From the NCBI GenBank assembly GCA_964389675.1, contig CAYMEV010000004.1, positions 124,001 through 178,232 of the forward strand: DNA of 54,232 nt, in the 5' to 3' direction. Below, piece after piece: positions 3,910-35,106 of this stretch. Every line of letters starts with the position of its first letter. Positions within the stretch are counted from its first letter, which is position 1. Made by a program: the position numbers and the translations under genes. The notes below the pieces were generated by a model, which was not told where the DNA came from, did not search any database, and saw nothing but the letters and a program-made list of their open reading frames with translations. The stretch is from an uncultured Candidatus Sumerlaeota bacterium (lineage in GTDB: Bacteria > CAYMEV01).

Positions 3910-4082
3910 GTTATTCTCCTTTTGTAAGATGCTAGGGTATTCTACCCATATCTGCCTTTTTATGCAAGATATTATAAATGAGTCAAATATTTTTCTGTCT
4001 TGACATTTTTGGTAATTCTGTTATATCATATAAAGGTTGTCTATTTTATAGCTATCGTTTTTTATCGGAAAGGAGATGTCTG

Positions 4083-4571
4083 ATGTCTGAAATCCAGATT
4101 ACTTCAAAGCTTCTGCAAAAATCCAGCAAGCTCTACAATCTTATTGATTCTACCCTCCAGAGATTCATCAAGCTTACAGGGGCTCAGCGCGGTTTTTTGA
4201 TCCTTGTTAACGAAAAGGGCGAATTTGAGATAAAGATTTCAAGAAATTTTGAAAATAAAGAAGAACTGCTTGAGAGTGTAAATTTTTCCAAAAGCATATT
4301 AAACAAGCTTATTACGGAAAAGACCCCCATTCTCACCCATAATGCATCAGATGACAGCAGTATAGACCTTTCCAACAGCATACTCAGCATGAACTTAAAG
4401 TCAATTATCTGCGTCCCTCTTATTGTCAAGGATAATCTGATTGGAGCAATCTACATGGAGAACAATGAGATATCAGGCCAGTTCACAAGCAAGCATCTTC
4501 ATAGTCTTGAGGATTTTGCATACAGGGCTTCGATAAGCATAAAGGCAAAGCTTGCTACTTTCTCAGCCTAA
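4083..4571 (+). CDS. Stand-alone GAF domain protein
   Basis: GAQRGFLIL...SIICVPLIVKDNLIGAIYMEN...FT GAF pattern; AGGAG RBS favours ATG 4083 over 3978. Confidence 0.8.
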   Translation: MSEIQITSKLLQKSSKLYNLIDSTLQRFIKLTGAQRGFLILVNEKGEFEIKISRNFENKEELLESVNFSKSILNKLITEKTPILTHNASDDSSIDLSNSILSMNLKSIICVPLIVKDNLIGAIYMENNEISGQFTSKHLHSLEDFAYRASISIKAKLATFSA

Positions 4572-4573
4572 GG

Positions 4574-6376
4574 CTAAAAGTTTTTTATTATTTCTGAGAT
4601 AGTATTAAGGATCTTATTGTTCAGGTCTTTTTCATTTTTGACAAGCAGTTCCAGCCTTGTCTCAGATGATGATGCAAAATACCCGCCTAATTCTTCCAGC
4701 GCTTTTGTATTTGCCTGCAGCCTCTTCTGAAATACAAGCATTAGCCTCTGCATATTCTGTATCTTCTTTGATATATCATTTTCAGAACCGCTTTCTGATC
4801 TATGCTTAAGCTTTGTATTCTCAATGACAAGGGCAGCCTGTGTTGCAAGAGAGTATAAAAATTCTACATCTTCAGTGCTGAAATCATAAGGCGATTCAAC
4901 CCTGTAGAAATTGAATACACCGTGCATAATCCCTTTTGAGATCATTGGAGCGACGACAAATGCATCAATTTTACTGTCCTTCAGCATTTTGAAAAATTCC
5001 TGGTTTTCTATTCCTATATCACTGAGTTCAGGGTCATTAATAATGCTTGCTGAAATGATCTTTTTCCTTGAAATAATCTCGCTCAGAGCGGTATTATTGC
5101 TGTTCAGGCTCAGGCTGTTAAGTGGGTCGCTGGAAAAGCCTACGGCAATAAGCTGTTTATATCCGTCTTTCTTTGGCACAAGAAGCGATCCGTGATGGAG
5201 ATGCTTAGCCTCCATTGCAAATTTGAAAATCCTTTTTAATATTTCAGGCAGCTCCTCCCTGGTCGACATAAGCATGGACACCTGATTCAGGACGGATATC
5301 TCCTCTATCTTTTCATTAAGCTTTCTGGTGATCTCTTCTACCTGTAGGTATAACTGCGATATCTGCAGGTTCGAATCCACAGCCTTTTCGAACAGCTCCT
5401 TGTCAACCTCCTGGCTTTCTTGATCCTCAGCATCCTTTTCTGCATTTTCAGGCTCCATGATAAGGTCATCCGTGTCAATATGCTGTTCATAGCTGGTTTC
5501 ACCAGCATTTCTGCTGTCTGTGTCAGGATTTTGCCTGCTTTTTTCTTTGTTCAGGTAGGCTTTCTCCAGTTTATCAAGCACACTCAGGGGATCTTCAAGG
5601 CTGAATGAAATTGATGGTTCAGAAGGTACCTCTTCAATTGCCTGTTTAACATGCTCCTTTTCCGTTTGGGCTTTTGGTTCTTCATCTGGAATTATAATTG
5701 CTTCTTCTATATTTGATTTTGAAAACCTGCCGAGGTTCTTTACAATAAGCCTTTTTATATTTGCAATGTCATCCACTACGCTCGGCAATTCGAATTCCTT
5801 GCTGACATAGTCAACAGTATCAAACAGAACGCTGGTAAGTGTTTCAAATACCCCGTCTCCATTTATGGCAATGGCTTCAAAATACGGGCAGTTCCTTTTA
5901 TTCAGAATATTGTTCAGCTCATTGACGGTAAGTATCTTGGGCAGGTCTCTCTTATTATACTGCATGACAAGGGGGACGGTATCGATGTCAAGTTTGTTCT
6001 CCCTGAGGTTGACTGCCATATCCTTCAGATTCTCAATATTGCTTGTCATCATATACCTCTGTGAATCGGCAACGAATACTACACCATCAGCGCCCTTCAG
6101 GACTGCTTTCCTTGTGGAGGAGTATTTTGACTGTCCAGGAACGGTATATAACTGCATTTTTATCCTCATTCCCCTGATGTTTCCGAGGTCATAGGGCAGG
6201 AGGTCAAAGAACAGGGTCCTGTCCTTTTCTGTATTCAGTGATATCAGCTTTGTTTCTCTGTTCGGGTCAGTGGCCTTGTGTATGTATCTAAGGTTGGTTG
6301 TTTTGCCAGAAAGCCCCGGGCCATAATAAACAAGCTTTATTATAAGCTCTTTTTCTTTTGCATTAAATTGAACCAA
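4574..6376 (-). CDS. MglA-like small GTPase fused to acidic linker, coiled coil and GAF domain
   Basis: KLVYYGPGLSGKTTNL, RTLFFD, LYTVPGQ, DGVVFVADSQ, QYNKRDLP; C-terminal APMISKGIMHGVFNF...LATQAALVIEN (GAF). Confidence 0.85.
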   Translation of the reverse strand: MVQFNAKEKELIIKLVYYGPGLSGKTTNLRYIHKATDPNRETKLISLNTEKDRTLFFDLLPYDLGNIRGMRIKMQLYTVPGQSKYSSTRKAVLKGADGVVFVADSQRYMMTSNIENLKDMAVNLRENKLDIDTVPLVMQYNKRDLPKILTVNELNNILNKRNCPYFEAIAINGDGVFETLTSVLFDTVDYVSKEFELPSVVDDIANIKRLIVKNLGRFSKSNIEEAIIIPDEEPKAQTEKEHVKQAIEEVPSEPSISFSLEDPLSVLDKLEKAYLNKEKSRQNPDTDSRNAGETSYEQHIDTDDLIMEPENAEKDAEDQESQEVDKELFEKAVDSNLQISQLYLQVEEITRKLNEKIEEISVLNQVSMLMSTREELPEILKRIFKFAMEAKHLHHGSLLVPKKDGYKQLIAVGFSSDPLNSLSLNSNNTALSEIISRKKIISASIINDPELSDIGIENQEFFKMLKDSKIDAFVVAPMISKGIMHGVFNFYRVESPYDFSTEDVEFLYSLATQAALVIENTKLKHRSESGSENDISKKIQNMQRLMLVFQKRLQANTKALEELGGYFASSSETRLELLVKNEKDLNNKILNTISEIIKNF

Positions 6377-25806: not shown

Positions 25807-26925
25807 ATGGAACTTTCAGTACAAAAGAATGAATTGCTCAGTGCACTTGAAAAGATTGAGGGGATCATTGATGTAAAGCGCCTTCTTCCTATTTTGACGC
25901 ACTGTCTCTTTACGGCTAAAGATGACTCTATACAGCTTTTTGGAACAGACCTTAATATCTCTGTCATCACGAAATGCCAGGCTGATATTGTCAATCCTGG
26001 CAAAATTGTAGTACCTGCCAAGAAATTCTACGAATTATTGAGGGATTTCCCGGAAGGCAGGCTTTTATTAAAGTATGATGAAACAACGAACAGGCTTATG
26101 ATAAAGATGGACAATTACCAGTTTGCACTGGCATGCGCCATTATTGAGGACTACCCCTCTATCCCTGATTATAAGTCTGAGGATACAATAGAGTTCTGTG
26201 CTTCATTCCTCTCCAATATAATCAAAAGGATACAGTTCTGCATAAGCACTATCCGCCAGCACATAGGCCTGACCGGAATGATAATGGATTTCAGGGCAAA
26301 GAGCATAGCATGCGCCACTACTGACGGCCACAGGCTGTCTGTAGGCGAATTTTACATGCCAAAATACTCCGAGGACTTCAAATACCTGACTCAGCTGAGG
26401 CATATAAGCAAAAAGACCATAACAGAATATGTAAAGCTTTTCTCGAACGATGAGGATATCAGGTGCTATGTTCTCGACAGGGGTATCTCCTTTGAGCAGG
26501 ACAACACAGTACTGATCTCAAAGTTCCTTGAGCTTGACTATCCCAATTATGCATCCCTTATTCCCACAAAGATTGCAAAGATATACCAGCTCAACAGGCT
26601 CGACACCATAAGCGCTGTAAGGACGACAGCCCCTCTCTCTAACGAGCTTACCAACAGCGTCAAGTTTGATTTTACTGAAAATGAGCTGAGGATACGGTCT
26701 TCAGATTCACAGATCGGCATGGGTGAGGTCAAGATCGAGGTTATGCCGACATATCCTCAGGATAAATATTCCATGGAGTTCAATGCCTTTTATCTCATTG
26801 ACATCCTGAACTCCCTTTCTGAAGAGACTTTTGAGCTCTGTGTCCAGGAAAGCCCCAAAGACTCAGTAATAATGCGGGACAAGGAAAGAACGCATTTCAC
26901 TTATGTCCTGATGCCCCTTTCCTAA
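25807..26925 (+). CDS. dnaN: DNA polymerase III beta clamp
   Basis: GTDL, ATTDGHRL, YPNY, FNAFYL, VLMPL. Confidence 0.95.
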   Translation: MELSVQKNELLSALEKIEGIIDVKRLLPILTHCLFTAKDDSIQLFGTDLNISVITKCQADIVNPGKIVVPAKKFYELLRDFPEGRLLLKYDETTNRLMIKMDNYQFALACAIIEDYPSIPDYKSEDTIEFCASFLSNIIKRIQFCISTIRQHIGLTGMIMDFRAKSIACATTDGHRLSVGEFYMPKYSEDFKYLTQLRHISKKTITEYVKLFSNDEDIRCYVLDRGISFEQDNTVLISKFLELDYPNYASLIPTKIAKIYQLNRLDTISAVRTTAPLSNELTNSVKFDFTENELRIRSSDSQIGMGEVKIEVMPTYPQDKYSMEFNAFYLIDILNSLSEETFELCVQESPKDSVIMRDKERTHFTYVLMPLS

Positions 26926-26963
26926 AGGGATTAAAGCTCTTTTTACCCTCTCTGGCATAATTT

Positions 26964-28052
26964 ATGTACTTGGAAAATATTGTTATACAAAATTTCAGGA
27001 ATATTGAAAAAGCGGAATTGGAATTCAAAAGCAGGTTCATCCTGGTTACCGGCGATAATGCACAGGGGAAGACCAACCTTCTGGAATCAGTCTATTATCT
27101 GCTGAATGCACGCAGTTTTCTTGACTCAAAGATAGAAAGCATACTGCAGTTTGATAAAGCCTCTTTCTGGCTGAGGGGCACAGTAGACAAAAGCCCGAAC
27201 CGCTTTGAATCTGTAATAAGCTGGCTTTCATCTACCAAGCGTGTAATGGTGAACAGCAAAGCAGTCAGGTCCATGTCAGAATATCAGAAATATTTCTCAT
27301 GCGTACATTCAAGCTCGGCCCAGACAGAGGAGTTCTCAAGGGGCCCGGGATGGCGCAGAAGGATGCTTGACAGGCTTGTCATGCAGATTGAACATCCCTA
27401 TATCAGGCTGATGGGCGATTATTACAAAACTATTAAAAGCAGGAATATCCTCCTGAAGAGGAAGGCTTTCGATGATGCCCTGTTCGAGCAATATACCGCA
27501 TCCCTTGTGGATCTGTGCTCAAAGATAATGGGTTTCAGGATGAAATACCTGAGATTATTTTCAGAAACCTATGACAGGGTCTTCCTTGACCTCTTTGGAA
27601 AGCTCCTGCCCTCACTCAGGCCTGTCCTGCTTCTTAACGGCAGTATAATGGACGAATCCTCCAGTTTTTATGATATATTCTCCTCGCTCTCCTCAAAGAA
27701 CCTTGCAGATGACATGAGAACAGGCTTTACTACCTGGGGCCTTTCAAAGACAGATTTTCTGTTTTATCTTGACAGCAGGCCAATAATCAGGTATTCTTCT
27801 CGTGGTCAGTTAAAGCTTATTATAATTCTTCTGTTACTTGTACAGTCGGAGATTATCAGGGGAATTGAATCCTCTTCACCCGTCCTGGTCATTGATGATA
27901 TGTTTGGTGAAATGGGCGATTCATTCATTGAAACTCTTCTGGACTATTTGAATGCTTTTGATCAGGTCTTTATATCAAGTATAAAAAACAACCTTGGTTT
28001 ACGTGAACATGACCTGATTATCATGAAAAACGGAAATCCTGTAAAGGGGTGA
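26964..28052 (+). CDS. recF: RecF
   Basis: NFRN, GDNAQGKTNLLE, RRRMLD, SRGQ, LVIDD. Confidence 0.9.
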   Translation: MYLENIVIQNFRNIEKAELEFKSRFILVTGDNAQGKTNLLESVYYLLNARSFLDSKIESILQFDKASFWLRGTVDKSPNRFESVISWLSSTKRVMVNSKAVRSMSEYQKYFSCVHSSSAQTEEFSRGPGWRRRMLDRLVMQIEHPYIRLMGDYYKTIKSRNILLKRKAFDDALFEQYTASLVDLCSKIMGFRMKYLRLFSETYDRVFLDLFGKLLPSLRPVLLLNGSIMDESSSFYDIFSSLSSKNLADDMRTGFTTWGLSKTDFLFYLDSRPIIRYSSRGQLKLIIILLLLVQSEIIRGIESSSPVLVIDDMFGEMGDSFIETLLDYLNAFDQVFISSIKNNLGLREHDLIIMKNGNPVKG

Positions 28053-28057
28053 TTTAA

Positions 28058-30541
<2,484 letters not shown>

Positions 30542-30582: not shown

Positions 30583-33063
30583 ATGGGGCATCAGCAATTA
30601 TTGGATGAATTATATAAGAGAGTAAATCTGGAGGACGAATTCAAGTCGAGCTTTCTGGACTATTCCATGAGCGTAATAGTCTCAAGGGCTATTCCTGATA
30701 TAAGGGACGGGCTCAAGCCTGTTCACAGAAGAATCCTGGTAGCGATGAACGACCTGAGCCTTCACCACAATTCCGGTTTCAGAAAGTGCGCCAAGATAAC
30801 CGGAGAAGTAACAGGAAAATACCATCCTCACGGAACCAGCGCTGTTTACCAGTCAATAGCCAGGATGGCCCAGTCCTTTTCGCTGAGGTACCCGCTCATA
30901 ATAGGCCAGGGGAATTTCGGCTCGGTTGACGGCGACCCGCCTGCCGCCGAAAGGTACACTGAAGCCAAGATGTCTGCTGTAGCTGATGAGATGCTCAAGG
31001 ACCTGAAAAAGGATACCGTGCCCTTTGTCCTGAACTATGACGGTACAGAGACGGAACCCGTAATCCTTCCTTCAGTAGTGCCCAATGCCCTTATTAACGG
31101 CTCAAGCGGTATTGCAGTGGGCATGGCGACAGAGATACCTCCCCATAATCTGACCGAGGTGATCGACGGGCTTCTTTTCTATATTGATAGCCCCGAATGC
31201 TCAACCCTTGAACTCATGCAGTACATAAAGGGGCCTGACTTCCCGACGGGGGGCATAATAAACGGAGTAGACCCCATAAGGGAGTTTTATGAGACAGGCA
31301 GGGGCAAGATCAGGCTCAGGGGAAGGCTTATAATAGAGACTGACAAATCATCCAGGGAAAAGATAATAATTACAGAAATTCCATATATGGTTAATAAGTC
31401 AAGGCTTATAGAAAGCATAGCGCATCTCATAAACCAGAAGAAGATAAACGGCATCTCGGATATCAGGGATGAATCGGACAGGGATGGAATACGTGTGGTA
31501 CTTGATGTAAAAAGGAATGAAAACTCCAATGTTATAATGAACCAGCTCTATAAATTCACACAGCTTGAGGTTACCTTCGGGGGTAATTTCCTTGCCCTGG
31601 TAGACATGGCCCCGAGGCTCCTGACGCTTAAGCAGTCGCTGGGGCACTTTTTATCACACAGGAGGAATATAGTCATCAGGAGAACCAAGTATGACCTCGA
31701 AAAGGCTCTCCAGAGGGCACATATTCTGGAAGGCCTTAAGATTGCGATCTCCAATATTGATGAGGTCATAAGGATAATAAAATCTTCACAGACTGTAAAA
31801 GAGGCTGAGGAGAACCTGATAGGGCGCTTCGAACTTTCACAGCCGCAGGCAAGGGCTATTCTGGACATGAAACTGCAGAGGCTTACAGGCCTTGAGATGG
31901 AGAAGATAATCAAGGAGCTCGAGGACCTTCTTCTGGAGATAAAAAGGCTTCAGGACATACTAAAAAGCAAGATACTTATCGACAATATAATCAAGGAAGA
32001 GCTGAAGGAGATCAGGTCAAAATACGGAGACCTGAGGCGAACTGAAATAATGATGGTCTCAGATGAGCCTGATATCCAGGATATGATAAAACAGGAGGAT
32101 ATCGTGGTCTTCCTGACAAACCAGATGTATATAAAGAGGACATCCCTAAGCTTTTACAGGAGCCAGAAAAGGGCAGGGACAGGAAAAAGGGGCGTAATGA
32201 CCAAGAACGACGATTTTGTGGAAAAGATATTCACTGCCCAGACACATGATTATTTCCTTATTACTACAAACAAGGGCAAGCTTTACTGGCTGAAGGCCTA
32301 TGAGATACCCGAATCCGGAATAACATCCGTGGGCAGGGCTATAATTAACCTGATCAGCATAGGCCAGGATGAGCTTATAAACACGATACTCCCCGTAAAG
32401 GAATTCAGGGATGACCAGTTCCTCTTTTTCGCCACCAGGAAGGGGCTTGTAAAAAAGACATCCCTCTCGCACTTTTCAAGGCCCAATAAGGCAGGCATAA
32501 AGGCTATCCTCCTGGATGAAGATGATGATCTTGTTGCTACAAGGATCTCCTCAGGAGTAGATGATATAATGCTTATAACAAGGGCAGGGATGAGCATAAG
32601 GTTTTCCGAAGCAAGTGTCAGGCCGACAGGCAGGGCCACAAGAGGGGTAATTGGCATAAGGCTTAAAAAGAGGATGGATGAGGTTGTATCCCTGGCTCTC
32701 TTCAATAAAGGCGCGACCGGTGAAGATGAATGCTCGCAGAAACCTTACGGGCTTTTCACAATAACAAGCAACGGCATCGGCAAAATCACCCTTGAACAGA
32801 AATTCCGCGCACAGAGCAGGGCAGGAATGGGCGTGATAAACATCAGGCTTTCAAAGAAGAAAAGCCATGTAATAGGTGCCAAGCCCATATGCAAAGGCGA
32901 TGATATAATAGTATGCACACAGAACGGCAAAGTAATACGCTTCAGCTCGGATTCCGTCTCCACAACAGGAAGGACATCGCAGGGGGTCAAGCTTCAGAGC
33001 CTCGGGGATGATGATTATGTTGTATCCTTTGCCACTGTCCCAAGCGACCAGGATGAGGATTAA
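30583..33063 (+). CDS. gyrA: DNA gyrase subunit A
   Basis: DGLKPVHRR, YHPHG, RYTE, GyrA-box-like QKRAGTG, CTD repeats. Confidence 0.97.
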   Translation: MGHQQLLDELYKRVNLEDEFKSSFLDYSMSVIVSRAIPDIRDGLKPVHRRILVAMNDLSLHHNSGFRKCAKITGEVTGKYHPHGTSAVYQSIARMAQSFSLRYPLIIGQGNFGSVDGDPPAAERYTEAKMSAVADEMLKDLKKDTVPFVLNYDGTETEPVILPSVVPNALINGSSGIAVGMATEIPPHNLTEVIDGLLFYIDSPECSTLELMQYIKGPDFPTGGIINGVDPIREFYETGRGKIRLRGRLIIETDKSSREKIIITEIPYMVNKSRLIESIAHLINQKKINGISDIRDESDRDGIRVVLDVKRNENSNVIMNQLYKFTQLEVTFGGNFLALVDMAPRLLTLKQSLGHFLSHRRNIVIRRTKYDLEKALQRAHILEGLKIAISNIDEVIRIIKSSQTVKEAEENLIGRFELSQPQARAILDMKLQRLTGLEMEKIIKELEDLLLEIKRLQDILKSKILIDNIIKEELKEIRSKYGDLRRTEIMMVSDEPDIQDMIKQEDIVVFLTNQMYIKRTSLSFYRSQKRAGTGKRGVMTKNDDFVEKIFTAQTHDYFLITTNKGKLYWLKAYEIPESGITSVGRAIINLISIGQDELINTILPVKEFRDDQFLFFATRKGLVKKTSLSHFSRPNKAGIKAILLDEDDDLVATRISSGVDDIMLITRAGMSIRFSEASVRPTGRATRGVIGIRLKKRMDEVVSLALFNKGATGEDECSQKPYGLFTITSNGIGKITLEQKFRAQSRAGMGVINIRLSKKKSHVIGAKPICKGDDIIVCTQNGKVIRFSSDSVSTTGRTSQGVKLQSLGDDDYVVSFATVPSDQDED

Positions 33064-33068
33064 CCCTT

Positions 33069-34313
33069 ATGTTCAGCCTGGATTTCATCAGGGATAACTT
33101 TGAAGTCCTGAAATACTATATTGAGCTGAAAGGCCTGGACACAGACATAGATTATGTATATCAGCTGACGCTTGACAGGGTAAAGCTAATAAAGGACATT
33201 GAGCAGACACAGAAAAGAATAAACCAGCTGAACAGGAAATACCTTGAACTGGAGGAAAACAGCCCCAAAAAGCAGAAAATGCATGAAGAGCTCAAAAGCC
33301 TTTCCAAAAGGAAGAAGCATATCAGGAAAAGCAGAAAAGAGACCGAGGGCAAGCTTGGGGAACTGCTCCTGACCATACCCAATATACCCAATATTGCCCT
33401 CTATCAGCCCCATTCCCACTTCACAACCACTGATACACTTCAGAAGGAATGGTATCCCCATGAATATGAAAAGAATACTGCCATAATACCGCATTATGAA
33501 ATGGCTTACAAACTACGCATATTTGACCAGAGCTTCACAAAAAAGATAAGCGCACCGAAATTCAAACTTTTTCTGCCTAAGGGCTCAATTCTGGTTGCAA
33601 AGATATCAAGGCATATCGTTGATTTTTTTCTCAGCAGCGGTTTCGAGAGGGTTTTCGTTTCAGAGGTCCTCGACAGGGATGTAGTGAAGATGATGGGATA
33701 CCTCCATAAGGACAGGGAGATGTTCCTGCTTGAAGACAAGAACCTTCAGCTTTCTCCTTCAGGGCACATCGGAATACTCAATATGCTCTCCAATATGAAC
33801 CTGGACAGCTCATACATACCCCTGAAGTTTTTTGCTGTCTCCAACTGCTTCAGGAAGGAAATAGGAGGATACGGCAAGGACAACAGGGGCCTTTTGAGAA
33901 TGTACCAGTTCATGAAGAATGATTCCATAATCATTTCTGACCCTGATGATTCATATGCCATTTTTGACAGCCTTGTTTCAACGGTGGAGAACCTGATTAA
34001 AAGCTTTGCGATCCCCTACAGGATCATAAACCCGTCATACTCAAGCACACCCTTTACCTCCAGCATGACACTGAACTTTGAGAGTTTTCTTCCGAGCCTT
34101 GGAAAGTGGATATCACTCCTCACCATATCAAATACGGAGGAATTCCTTTCCAGGCGGATCAATCTGCAGTGCAGGTGCCATAAGAGGAAGGCCAGGGATT
34201 ACCCTCATATACTGCACTGTTCAGGACCTGCAATAGAGAGGCTGATAGCGCTTATTCTGGAAAACCGCCAGTATGACGGGGGTTTTGATTTCAATACCCT
34301 TTTTGAATACTGA
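33069..34313 (+). CDS. Seryl-tRNA synthetase homolog with degenerate active site
   Basis: N-terminal coiled-coil arm, IPNIP, CFRKE..G.D.RGLLR.YQF, AIER..ILEN; TxE, KxE, ExSS and NGS motifs altered. Confidence 0.8.
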   Translation: MFSLDFIRDNFEVLKYYIELKGLDTDIDYVYQLTLDRVKLIKDIEQTQKRINQLNRKYLELEENSPKKQKMHEELKSLSKRKKHIRKSRKETEGKLGELLLTIPNIPNIALYQPHSHFTTTDTLQKEWYPHEYEKNTAIIPHYEMAYKLRIFDQSFTKKISAPKFKLFLPKGSILVAKISRHIVDFFLSSGFERVFVSEVLDRDVVKMMGYLHKDREMFLLEDKNLQLSPSGHIGILNMLSNMNLDSSYIPLKFFAVSNCFRKEIGGYGKDNRGLLRMYQFMKNDSIIISDPDDSYAIFDSLVSTVENLIKSFAIPYRIINPSYSSTPFTSSMTLNFESFLPSLGKWISLLTISNTEEFLSRRINLQCRCHKRKARDYPHILHCSGPAIERLIALILENRQYDGGFDFNTLFEY

Positions 34314-34314
34314 T

Positions 34315-35106
34315 TCAGATCTTCCTGGCAACCGCAATATAGGCAGTATGCCCTACCATTGCGTCATTGGGCCTCAGCCGTTCTGATACGACCTTATAGT
34401 TCCTTATCAGCAGTTCTGTTATCTCTGTTTCCCTGAAACCATAATGATTCAGGCTCTCGATAATATTTGAAAGCTGGTTTACAGTTGCAACCACCATGCC
34501 CACGGTACCGCCGTATTTCAGTGCCCCATAAACATGGCCTAGGACATCCTGCGGCTCCCTTATATCTATAAAGACATTGTCAAGTTCCTTTTCATCAATC
34601 CCATCCTTGATCACATCACGGTTCTTGAAGCTTATTCTTGTTTCCAGCCCCCTGTCATAAAGGAGTATGTTTTTCCGGCTCATCTGGACAAACTCGGGCC
34701 TTGCCTCATAGGTCACAATACTGCCTTCCTTTCCTGCAAACTGTGAAAGCACAAGGGTCATCGAACCCGTCCCTGTCCCGATTTCGGCTATTCTTGCCCC
34801 TTCCCTTATTCCCATCCTGAAAGCGATGAATGCGCTGTCCTTTGGGTATATTATCTGTGTATGCCTTTTCAGGCCGAAAAGGATATACTCATACATGGTC
34901 GGCTTAAGGACTGCATACAAAACCCCCTTGCTTGTTGTCAGGCATGTGCCGTAGCCCTTCTCAACGATCTCCTTTACATAGAGAAAGCCGTTTGTCGTAT
35001 TATACTTGAAATTGGGGACTATATTAGGCGGTATCTGGTAAAAATACCTCTTATCATCCCCCGTGTCATACAGCAGGACAAGGTATCCGGGTTTTATGGA
35101 ATTCAA
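34315..35106 (-). CDS. trmI: tRNA (adenine-58-N1) methyltransferase TrmI/Gcd14
   Basis: RHTQIIYPKD, EIGTGTGS, DIREP, LRP..MVGHTAY. Confidence 0.9.
   Translation of the reverse strand: MNSIKPGYLVLLYDTGDDKRYFYQIPPNIVPNFKYNTTNGFLYVKEIVEKGYGTCLTTSKGVLYAVLKPTMYEYILFGLKRHTQIIYPKDSAFIAFRMGIREGARIAEIGTGTGSMTLVLSQFAGKEGSIVTYEARPEFVQMSRKNILLYDRGLETRISFKNRDVIKDGIDEKELDNVFIDIREPQDVLGHVYGALKYGGTVGMVVATVNQLSNIIESLNHYGFRETEITELLIRNYKVVSERLRPNDAMVGHTAYIAVARKI

Follow-up and report, generated by a model that had tools for sequence, protein, structure and literature searches.

A full-length seryl-tRNA synthetase paralogue behind gyrA, with a rebuilt serine and magnesium site, probably serves a new tRNA-linked job

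We analyzed a 54,232-nucleotide stretch (hereafter, the window) of contig CAYMEV010000004.1, positions 124,001 to 178,232, from an uncultured Candidatus Sumerlaeota bacterium. Directly behind gyrA, at 33069-34313 on the + strand, it carries a gene for a seryl-tRNA synthetase (SerRS) homologue (P0001) in which several residues of the amino acid and magnesium sites are replaced. The reading frame is intact, running from an ATG at 33069 to a stop codon at 34311-34313, and encodes 414 amino acids. The features of the gene are as follows.

33069..34313, + strand: SerRS paralogue (P0001), 414 aa; open reading frame (ORF), PF00587 and PF02403 matches, TIGR00414 at 211.7 bits, AlphaFold2 model, Foldseek matches
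33069..33389, + strand: N-terminal coiled-coil tRNA-binding arm, residues 1-107; Seryl_tRNA_N match (7.1e-15) and modelled helices
33753..33767, + strand: SPSGH in place of the serine-binding P-T-x-E (TxE), residues 229-233; alignments, invariant in five of five family members
33843..33923, + strand: motif 2 and its loop, residues 259-285, with R262, E264, Y268, R273, R277 and F281 kept and E285 changed to Asp; alignments
34113..34133, + strand: magnesium-site strand, residues 349-355, with Glu changed to Ser or Asn and S/T352, S354 and N355 kept; alignment to 6r1n
34203..34241, + strand: motif 3 region, residues 379-391, with H380, S385, G386 and R391 kept and N383 lost; alignments

We confirmed that the gene encodes a full-length, bacterial-type SerRS homologue. 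Pfam placed a tRNA-synt_2b domain (PF00587, 1.4e-25) at residues 222-399 and a Seryl_tRNA_N domain (PF02403) at residues 1-107. An AlphaFold2 model from a 40-sequence alignment (pLDDT 90.2, pTM 0.86) predicts that two long helices, 27-60 and 66-100, form the arm. Foldseek searches with this model returned SerRS structures as all of the top matches (TMq 0.86-0.89, with 0.89 to 2dq3), and the superposition includes the arm. The SerRS arm and class-II core are thus both present, and the intact frame and tRNA-binding arm described in a first-pass annotation, made from the letters alone, are borne out by the ORF, the Pfam match and the modelled helices. The closest solved structure was Aquifex aeolicus SerRS (2dq3, E 1.6e-44); the best solved relatives that we typed among 47 matches (2dq3, 6r1n, 6r1m and 6hdz) are bacterial enzymes. 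NCBIfam also placed the protein closest to serS (TIGR00414), although its score of 211.7 bits falls short of the 301.65-bit cut-off for that equivalog; a match to hisZ reached an E-value of only 0.028.

The genome from which the window derives (G000; 3.57 Mb in 58 contigs, 93.8% complete) contains a second, canonical serS at C5:106640-107887, as the first-pass annotation had anticipated when it placed a functional copy elsewhere. This gene scores ~459 bits (459.7) against TIGR00414, above the cut-off, reads PTSE, YRRE, QFNKIE, EVSSCSN and HTLNSSG at the diagnostic motifs, keeps the arm (PF02403, 79 bits) and is directly followed by cysS. The two proteins are 25% identical. Because a canonical serS lies beside cysS in the same genome, the window gene is a paralogue and not the housekeeping SerRS; the canonical copy would do the housekeeping charging. 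Annotation pipelines that name the paralogue 'serine--tRNA ligase' would be wrong on function.

Protein searches covering billions of sequences yielded a family of five distinct sequences. Searching 5.8 billion clusters by word index gave four members besides P0001, at 75, 67, 64 and 49% identity, after which came ordinary SerRS at ~30%. The gene call of the 49% member (P0078) had been shortened, and its full 420-aa gene lies on the metagenome contig L019; P0005, a truncated duplicate of P0078, was left out of counts and tree. A profile search of all 1.84 billion representatives returned two 50%-identity clusters above 500 bits, with the next match at 234 bits, while a search seeded with the distant P0078 added no members. 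Two family-specific peptide patterns, run against 185,579 species genomes, returned a single contig, from genome G001, and the ESM Atlas matched ordinary SerRS clusters only. Together, these searches, which were not aimed at fused or split forms, found no members other than the G001 contig and five clusters at 90% identity. The family clusters contain 6, 1, 1 and 2 members.

In the GTDB set, the phylum-level lineage is represented by just two genomes, G000 and G001, and both have the paralogue together with the canonical serS-cysS pair. Near-identical fragments also occur in sediment and soil metagenome runs of three further studies; those in three runs carry 0-1 differences each. In a FastTree tree of 215 sequences of 380-470 aa (P0005 removed), the paralogues are monophyletic (support 1.0) on a stem branch of 1.18 substitutions per site. 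This clade is placed next to a further long branch with a support of 0.37, and its sister is not the canonical SerRS of G000.

The catalytic domain of the paralogue aligns without gaps to Staphylococcus aureus (Sa) SerRS 6r1n, with identical numbering, and residue roles can be read across directly. In Escherichia coli (Ec) SerRS the seryl moiety is contacted by T237, E239, R268, E291 and S391, equivalent to Sa T231, E233, R262, E285 and S385; Sa E349 coordinates magnesium and Sa F281 stacks on the adenine (bioRxiv 10.1101/586255). To hold Mg-ATP, class-II synthetases need acidic residues that are conserved among them (PMC9840234), and in SerRS-tRNA complexes the acceptor stem is entered by motif 2 together with its loop (PMC9427863).

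Residue alignments to solved SerRS reproduced the substitutions listed at first pass: PTAE is replaced by PSGH, QFDKVE by QFMKND, EISSCSN by SLLTISN, and HTLNGSGLAVGR by HILHCSGPAIER. They agree, too, that FRKE of motif 2 and AIER of motif 3 are retained. To place these changes, 226 proteins were aligned; without the five paralogues and P0005, 220 SerRS-like sequences remained for comparison. Glutamate occupies each of positions 233, 285 and 349 in 217 of the 220, and none has histidine at position 233. In place of the serine-binding TxE (Ec T237/E239), all five family members read S231-G232-H233. Where Sa SerRS has its magnesium-coordinating E349, the members read S, S, N, N and N. The combination of SGH, Asp285 and Ser/Asn349 is found in all five paralogues and in 0 of the 220 other SerRS-like proteins.

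R262, F281 and R391, that is, the motif 2 arginine, the stacking phenylalanine and the motif 3 arginine, are invariant, and E264 is kept in four of five members (Asn in P0078). Of the 27 positions in motif 2 and its loop, 20 do not vary within the family, H279 being Tyr or Arg. In the motif 3 region, P387 and E390 are newly invariant, and the seryl contact S385 is kept in the paralogue and is Thr in P0078. The motif-1 proline is Ser in four of five members. A change of Thr381 to Ile occurs in ordinary SerRS as well and is not diagnostic.

We also compared the family with 214 ordinary SerRS, which are the 220 without six atypical proteins (P0080, P0128, P0132, P0138, P0160 and P0208); since these six were picked for deviating at 233, 285 or 349, conservation at those positions is 100% in the 214-member set by construction. 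All five paralogues keep 31 canonical-conserved positions, including R262, G266, G269, R277, Q280, F281, R363, H380 and R391, and 12 such positions are changed. At eight of the 12, at least 98% of the ordinary SerRS share one residue that is absent from every paralogue. Four of these eight are fixed to a new residue (T231S, E233H, E285D and Q360L) and four are relaxed (H279 to Y/R, D336 to N/Q/L/F/R, E349 to S/N and N383 to H/I).

Judged from these alignments, the radical changes are E233H and the loss of the magnesium ligand E349; T231S and E285D count as conservative. Of the five seryl contacts, two are kept in kind, Asp285 standing in for Glu and Ser/Thr385 for Ser. The family also retains the residues that hold the adenine nucleotide and the acceptor end of the tRNA, namely R262, E264 (in four of five), Y268, R273, R277, F281, R391 and the motif-2 loop. 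Among the motifs that the first-pass annotation took to contact serine or ATP-Mg, HTLNGSG touches the seryl moiety through the Ser of GSG, which the paralogue keeps as S385. The suggestion in that annotation of a His/His-Cys metal site in the pocket fails, because positions 383/384 vary across the family (HC, HC, HI, HW and IG) and His233 is the only invariant residue of the proposed set.

Five SerRS-like metagenomic proteins unrelated to the family (P0132, P0138, P0160, P0080 and P0128) are without at least one of the TxE glutamate, the E285 equivalent and the magnesium-binding glutamate; in P0132, for instance, the three sites are NGL, S and F. The literature may understate how common degenerate or remodelled SerRS copies are.

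The rebuilt pocket is conserved. Across the five members, 53 of the 83 positions in the four pocket motifs do not vary, compared with 84 of 331 in the rest of the protein; the invariant share is 12 of 13 in the rebuilt TxE strand and 31 of 107 in the arm region. Between G000 and G001 the paralogue is 74.3% identical, close to canonical SerRS (75.3%) and CysRS (71.1%), with GyrA at 85.6% and GyrB at 87.8%. Nei-Gojobori nonsynonymous divergence (dN) for the same pair is 0.158 for the paralogue, 0.172 for serS, 0.212 for cysS and 0.090 for gyrA. The ratio to synonymous divergence (dN/dS) of the paralogue is at most ~0.09, a rough bound only, because synonymous sites are near saturation (pS 0.68-0.79). 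A dN like that of canonical serS, with the pocket as the most conserved part, indicates that the paralogue is maintained by selection and is not decaying, and on these substitution patterns the pocket is its most constrained part. Conservation and dN/dS among relatives had been proposed as a check on the first-pass interpretation; the substitutions are conserved in five of five members.

We searched the genome for RNAs and pathways that such a protein could serve. ARAGORN found 43 tRNAs and a tmRNA, and Rfam (RF00005) the same 43 tRNAs, none of them a dedicated, odd tRNA. All four tRNA-Ser and the selenocysteine (Sec) tRNA begin with GGAG, and they appear to carry the usual G73, as read around the ARAGORN boundaries. 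The selenocysteine machinery of G000 is complete:

C9:65782-65876: tRNA-Sec
C20:65852-67144: selA, 350 bits
C17:43471-44526: selB, 274 bits
C1:61696-62613: selD, 354 bits

With selA, selB, selD and tRNA-Sec all present, we rejected the idea that the paralogue fills a gap in selenocysteine synthesis.

These observations suggest that the paralogue probably has a new tRNA-linked job. The form of this that we favor, tentatively and with somewhat less than even confidence, is a neofunctionalized SerRS paralogue that would still bind tRNA and nucleotide and would have lost standard serine activation. The arm would dock a long-variable-arm tRNA (tRNA-Ser or tRNA-Sec), and the pocket would bind an adenine nucleotide or an adenylate-like ligand. 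Standard Mg-ATP-dependent activation of L-serine would no longer be carried out; instead, the protein may have a pocket-dependent, non-aminoacylating role: sensing, holding or processing either the charged end of a tRNA or a ligand that resembles serine or an adenylate. It might act by itself or dimerize with the canonical SerRS. The functional analogy that we favor is HisZ, which works with HisG and is not known to carry a tRNA-binding domain. HisZ is a bacterial class-II aminoacyl-tRNA synthetase (aaRS) paralogue that does not adenylate and has a role via small-ligand binding (PMC9437257). It differs from the paralogue in belonging to another aaRS family and in having a partner enzyme, none being evident here.

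Several points weigh against this reading. The kept ATP-side arginines, the phenylalanine and the near-canonical motif-2 loop are what would be expected of an enzyme that makes or uses an adenylate, and the known pseudo-SerRS, SLIMP, has lost those ATP-side residues (PMC10570016). Ser/Asn349 and Ser/Thr352 might still hold Mg-ATP through water, in which case activation could survive. The pocket was read from sequence alignments; the changes at H279, D336, Q360 and N383 were judged by conservation; and the windows of the pocket motifs were set after the alignment was seen. Finally, the five sequences are kin from one lineage, and the conservation counts therefore overstate independent support.

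Alternatively, the paralogue may be active as an adenylate-forming ligase whose small-molecule substrate has changed, still binding ATP and the tRNA acceptor end, which we regard as possible and place well under even. A subsite of Ser231, His233, Asp285 and Ser/Thr385 would then select something other than L-serine, perhaps a serine-like acid differing at the alpha position or one with a slightly larger polar side chain, and the product would be loaded on a tRNA with a long arm or on some other acceptor. Such a ligase would fit the almost canonical, invariant motif-2 loop and residues for ATP and the acceptor end, and also the amino-acid-site changes that are fixed to specific new residues in five of five members, with no drift and with 12 of 13 TxE-strand positions invariant. 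The magnesium-binding glutamate, however, is substrate-independent and yet is lost and variable here; to our knowledge, it is kept in other class-II ligase paralogues. Likewise, the canonical-invariant D336 is fully relaxed, no dedicated tRNA is found among the 43, and no conserved carrier protein or biosynthetic partner lies nearby. Amino acid:carrier protein (aa:CP) ligases are methanogen-type and are not known to have a tRNA-binding domain, with a carrier-protein gene adjacent; the paralogue is bacterial-type, its arm is intact, and it neighbors gyrA and a methyltransferase gene, with no carrier-protein gene nearby. They resemble it in being SerRS-derived, as truncated homologues with a new acceptor, and, in favor of a ligase, other bacterial aaRS paralogues with full architecture, such as PoxA and the aa:CP ligases, are enzymes (PMC9437257). 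A related proposal, which we place only slightly lower than the changed ligase, is that an enzyme derived from SerRS carries out new chemistry at the 3' end of tRNA. It might attach a serine-like acid other than serine (alpha-hydroxy or alpha-modified) to tRNA-Ser/Sec-type tRNAs, which would fit the change of the TxE glutamate to histidine; or, independently of magnesium, its His233/Asp285/Ser pocket could act on Ser-AMP or Ser-tRNA by hydrolyzing or transferring the seryl group.

The remaining explanations fit less of the evidence. A second genuine SerRS, inhibitor-resistant or condition-specific, that charges tRNA-Ser or tRNA-Sec would account for the full SerRS architecture and for three of five seryl contacts that are kept or conservatively changed (S231, R262 and S385), with E285 as Asp. 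There is precedent in the albomycin-resistant SerRS2 of Streptomyces, ~30% identical to its housekeeping copy (PMC9437257), compared with 25% here. We nevertheless judge it improbable. Glu233 and Glu349, each in 217 of the 220 other SerRS-like sequences, are absent from the paralogue, and the score lies well under the TIGR00414 cut-off. SerRS2 is active and antibiotic-linked, whereas catalytic residues are replaced in the paralogue, and within the 54-kb window its gene sits in a dnaN-recF-gyrB-gyrA string and not in an antibiotic cluster. Moreover, because the full Sec pathway and a canonical SerRS are present, nothing is missing for it to supply. Less probable again is a SLIMP-like obligate partner, catalytically dead, that would form a heterodimer with the canonical SerRS and lend only its arm; the first-pass annotation had drawn the analogy to insect SLIMP. 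The likenesses are a SerRS paralogue with a tRNA arm and an altered amino acid and magnesium site, beside a working SerRS; SerRS binds tRNA across its dimer (PMC9427863), and the change of the motif-1 proline to Ser in four of five members hints at an altered dimer interface. The anatomy argues otherwise. SLIMP, a metazoan mitochondrial protein, has lost the motif-2 arginine and the stacking phenylalanine, its pocket is collapsed and does not bind ATP, and its partner SerRS is armless (PMC10570016). In the bacterial paralogue R262, F281, R277 and R391 are invariant, in place of a collapsed pocket; the canonical SerRS still has an arm (PF02403, 79 bits); and the conserved pocket would be left unexplained. 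A decaying duplicate on its way to a pseudogene, for which the long stem (1.18 substitutions per site) and the loss of several canonical-invariant residues could speak, is hardly credible and is contradicted by the evidence in hand: the frame is intact in five of five members, dN equals that of canonical serS with dN/dS at most ~0.09 (dS near saturation), the pocket is the most conserved part, and synteny is kept across a lineage in which GyrA is 59% identical.

Measured against canonical bacterial SerRS (2dq3, 6r1n and 1sry), the paralogue is alike in length, fold, arm, motifs 2 and 3, stacking phenylalanine, motif-2 loop and position downstream of gyrA. It is unlike them in its sub-cut-off score, the change of TxE to SGH, of the seryl-contact Glu to Asp and of the magnesium-binding Glu to Ser/Asn, the loss of H279, D336, Q360 and N383, and in not being the sole copy. 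The available portion of a review lists SerRS2, SLIMP and truncated aa:CP ligases as the only kinds of SerRS paralogue (PMC9437257). Our literature search, whose coverage excluded most subscription journals, turned up no bacterial SerRS paralogue of full length in which the TxE and magnesium site is rebuilt. New biology has repeatedly come from aaRS paralogues, among them HisZ, PoxA, aa:CP ligases and SLIMP. A family that would still grip tRNA and nucleotide while fixing a new pocket makes a clean, small and testable case in a phylum-level lineage of two genomes; it would be a tRNA-linked activity that is new or else a pseudo-synthetase that senses a ligand.

The neighborhood of the gene comprises the following features.

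25807..30541, + strand: dnaN, recF and gyrB, in one same-strand string with gyrA and the paralogue; ORFs and Pfam
30583..33063, + strand: gyrA, directly upstream; PF00521, 2.5e-159
33055..33059, + strand: GAGGA ribosome-binding site within the end of gyrA, 9 nt upstream of the start codon; sequence
34315..35106, - strand: GCD14/TrmI-like methyltransferase gene, a convergent neighbor with no functional link shown; PF08704, 2.3e-25

The ATG of the paralogue lies 5 nt past the gyrA stop codon (33061-33063). Between 25400 and 35300 no terminator-like site was found on the + strand; all 5 sites found lie off it. The paralogue gene directly follows gyrA in each of the three contexts with DNA, namely the window, G001 (3-nt gap) and L019 (2-nt gap), the last with a GyrA 59% identical to that of the window. 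The gyrA-serS position noted at first pass is real: a sole canonical serS directly follows gyrA in 4 of 60 genomes of other families (G007, G014, G021 and G055), and a single canonical serS lies within 2 kb of gyrA in 2 more of the 60 (G004 and G015). The paralogue occupies what was probably an ancestral serS slot behind gyrA; as a recurrent serS position, this slot says little on new function.

Downstream of the paralogue, the GCD14-like methyltransferase gene is also present in G001. On L019 the paralogue is followed, at 3997-5824, by an unassigned 95-aa ORF, pcm (protein-L-isoaspartate methyltransferase) and a convergent TtuA-like tRNA sulfurtransferase gene. We rejected a conserved downstream partner, as neither pcm nor the TtuA-like gene of L019 is an orthologue of the methyltransferase gene shared by the window and G001.

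Two further observations concern the gyrase genes. In G021, one of the genomes in which serS follows gyrA, the gyrA match (G021:C1:1162031-1164286) belongs to an open frame that is unusually long at 1257 aa, which could be a fusion or an insertion. In the window, GyrB has an N-terminal extension of ~35 aa with a CxxC...CxxC pattern (MLKCKKCGY...CPQCNG; 28058-28160, + strand) that looks like a zinc ribbon; the first GyrB-related Pfam domain starts at residue 60, and the extension is conserved in G001.

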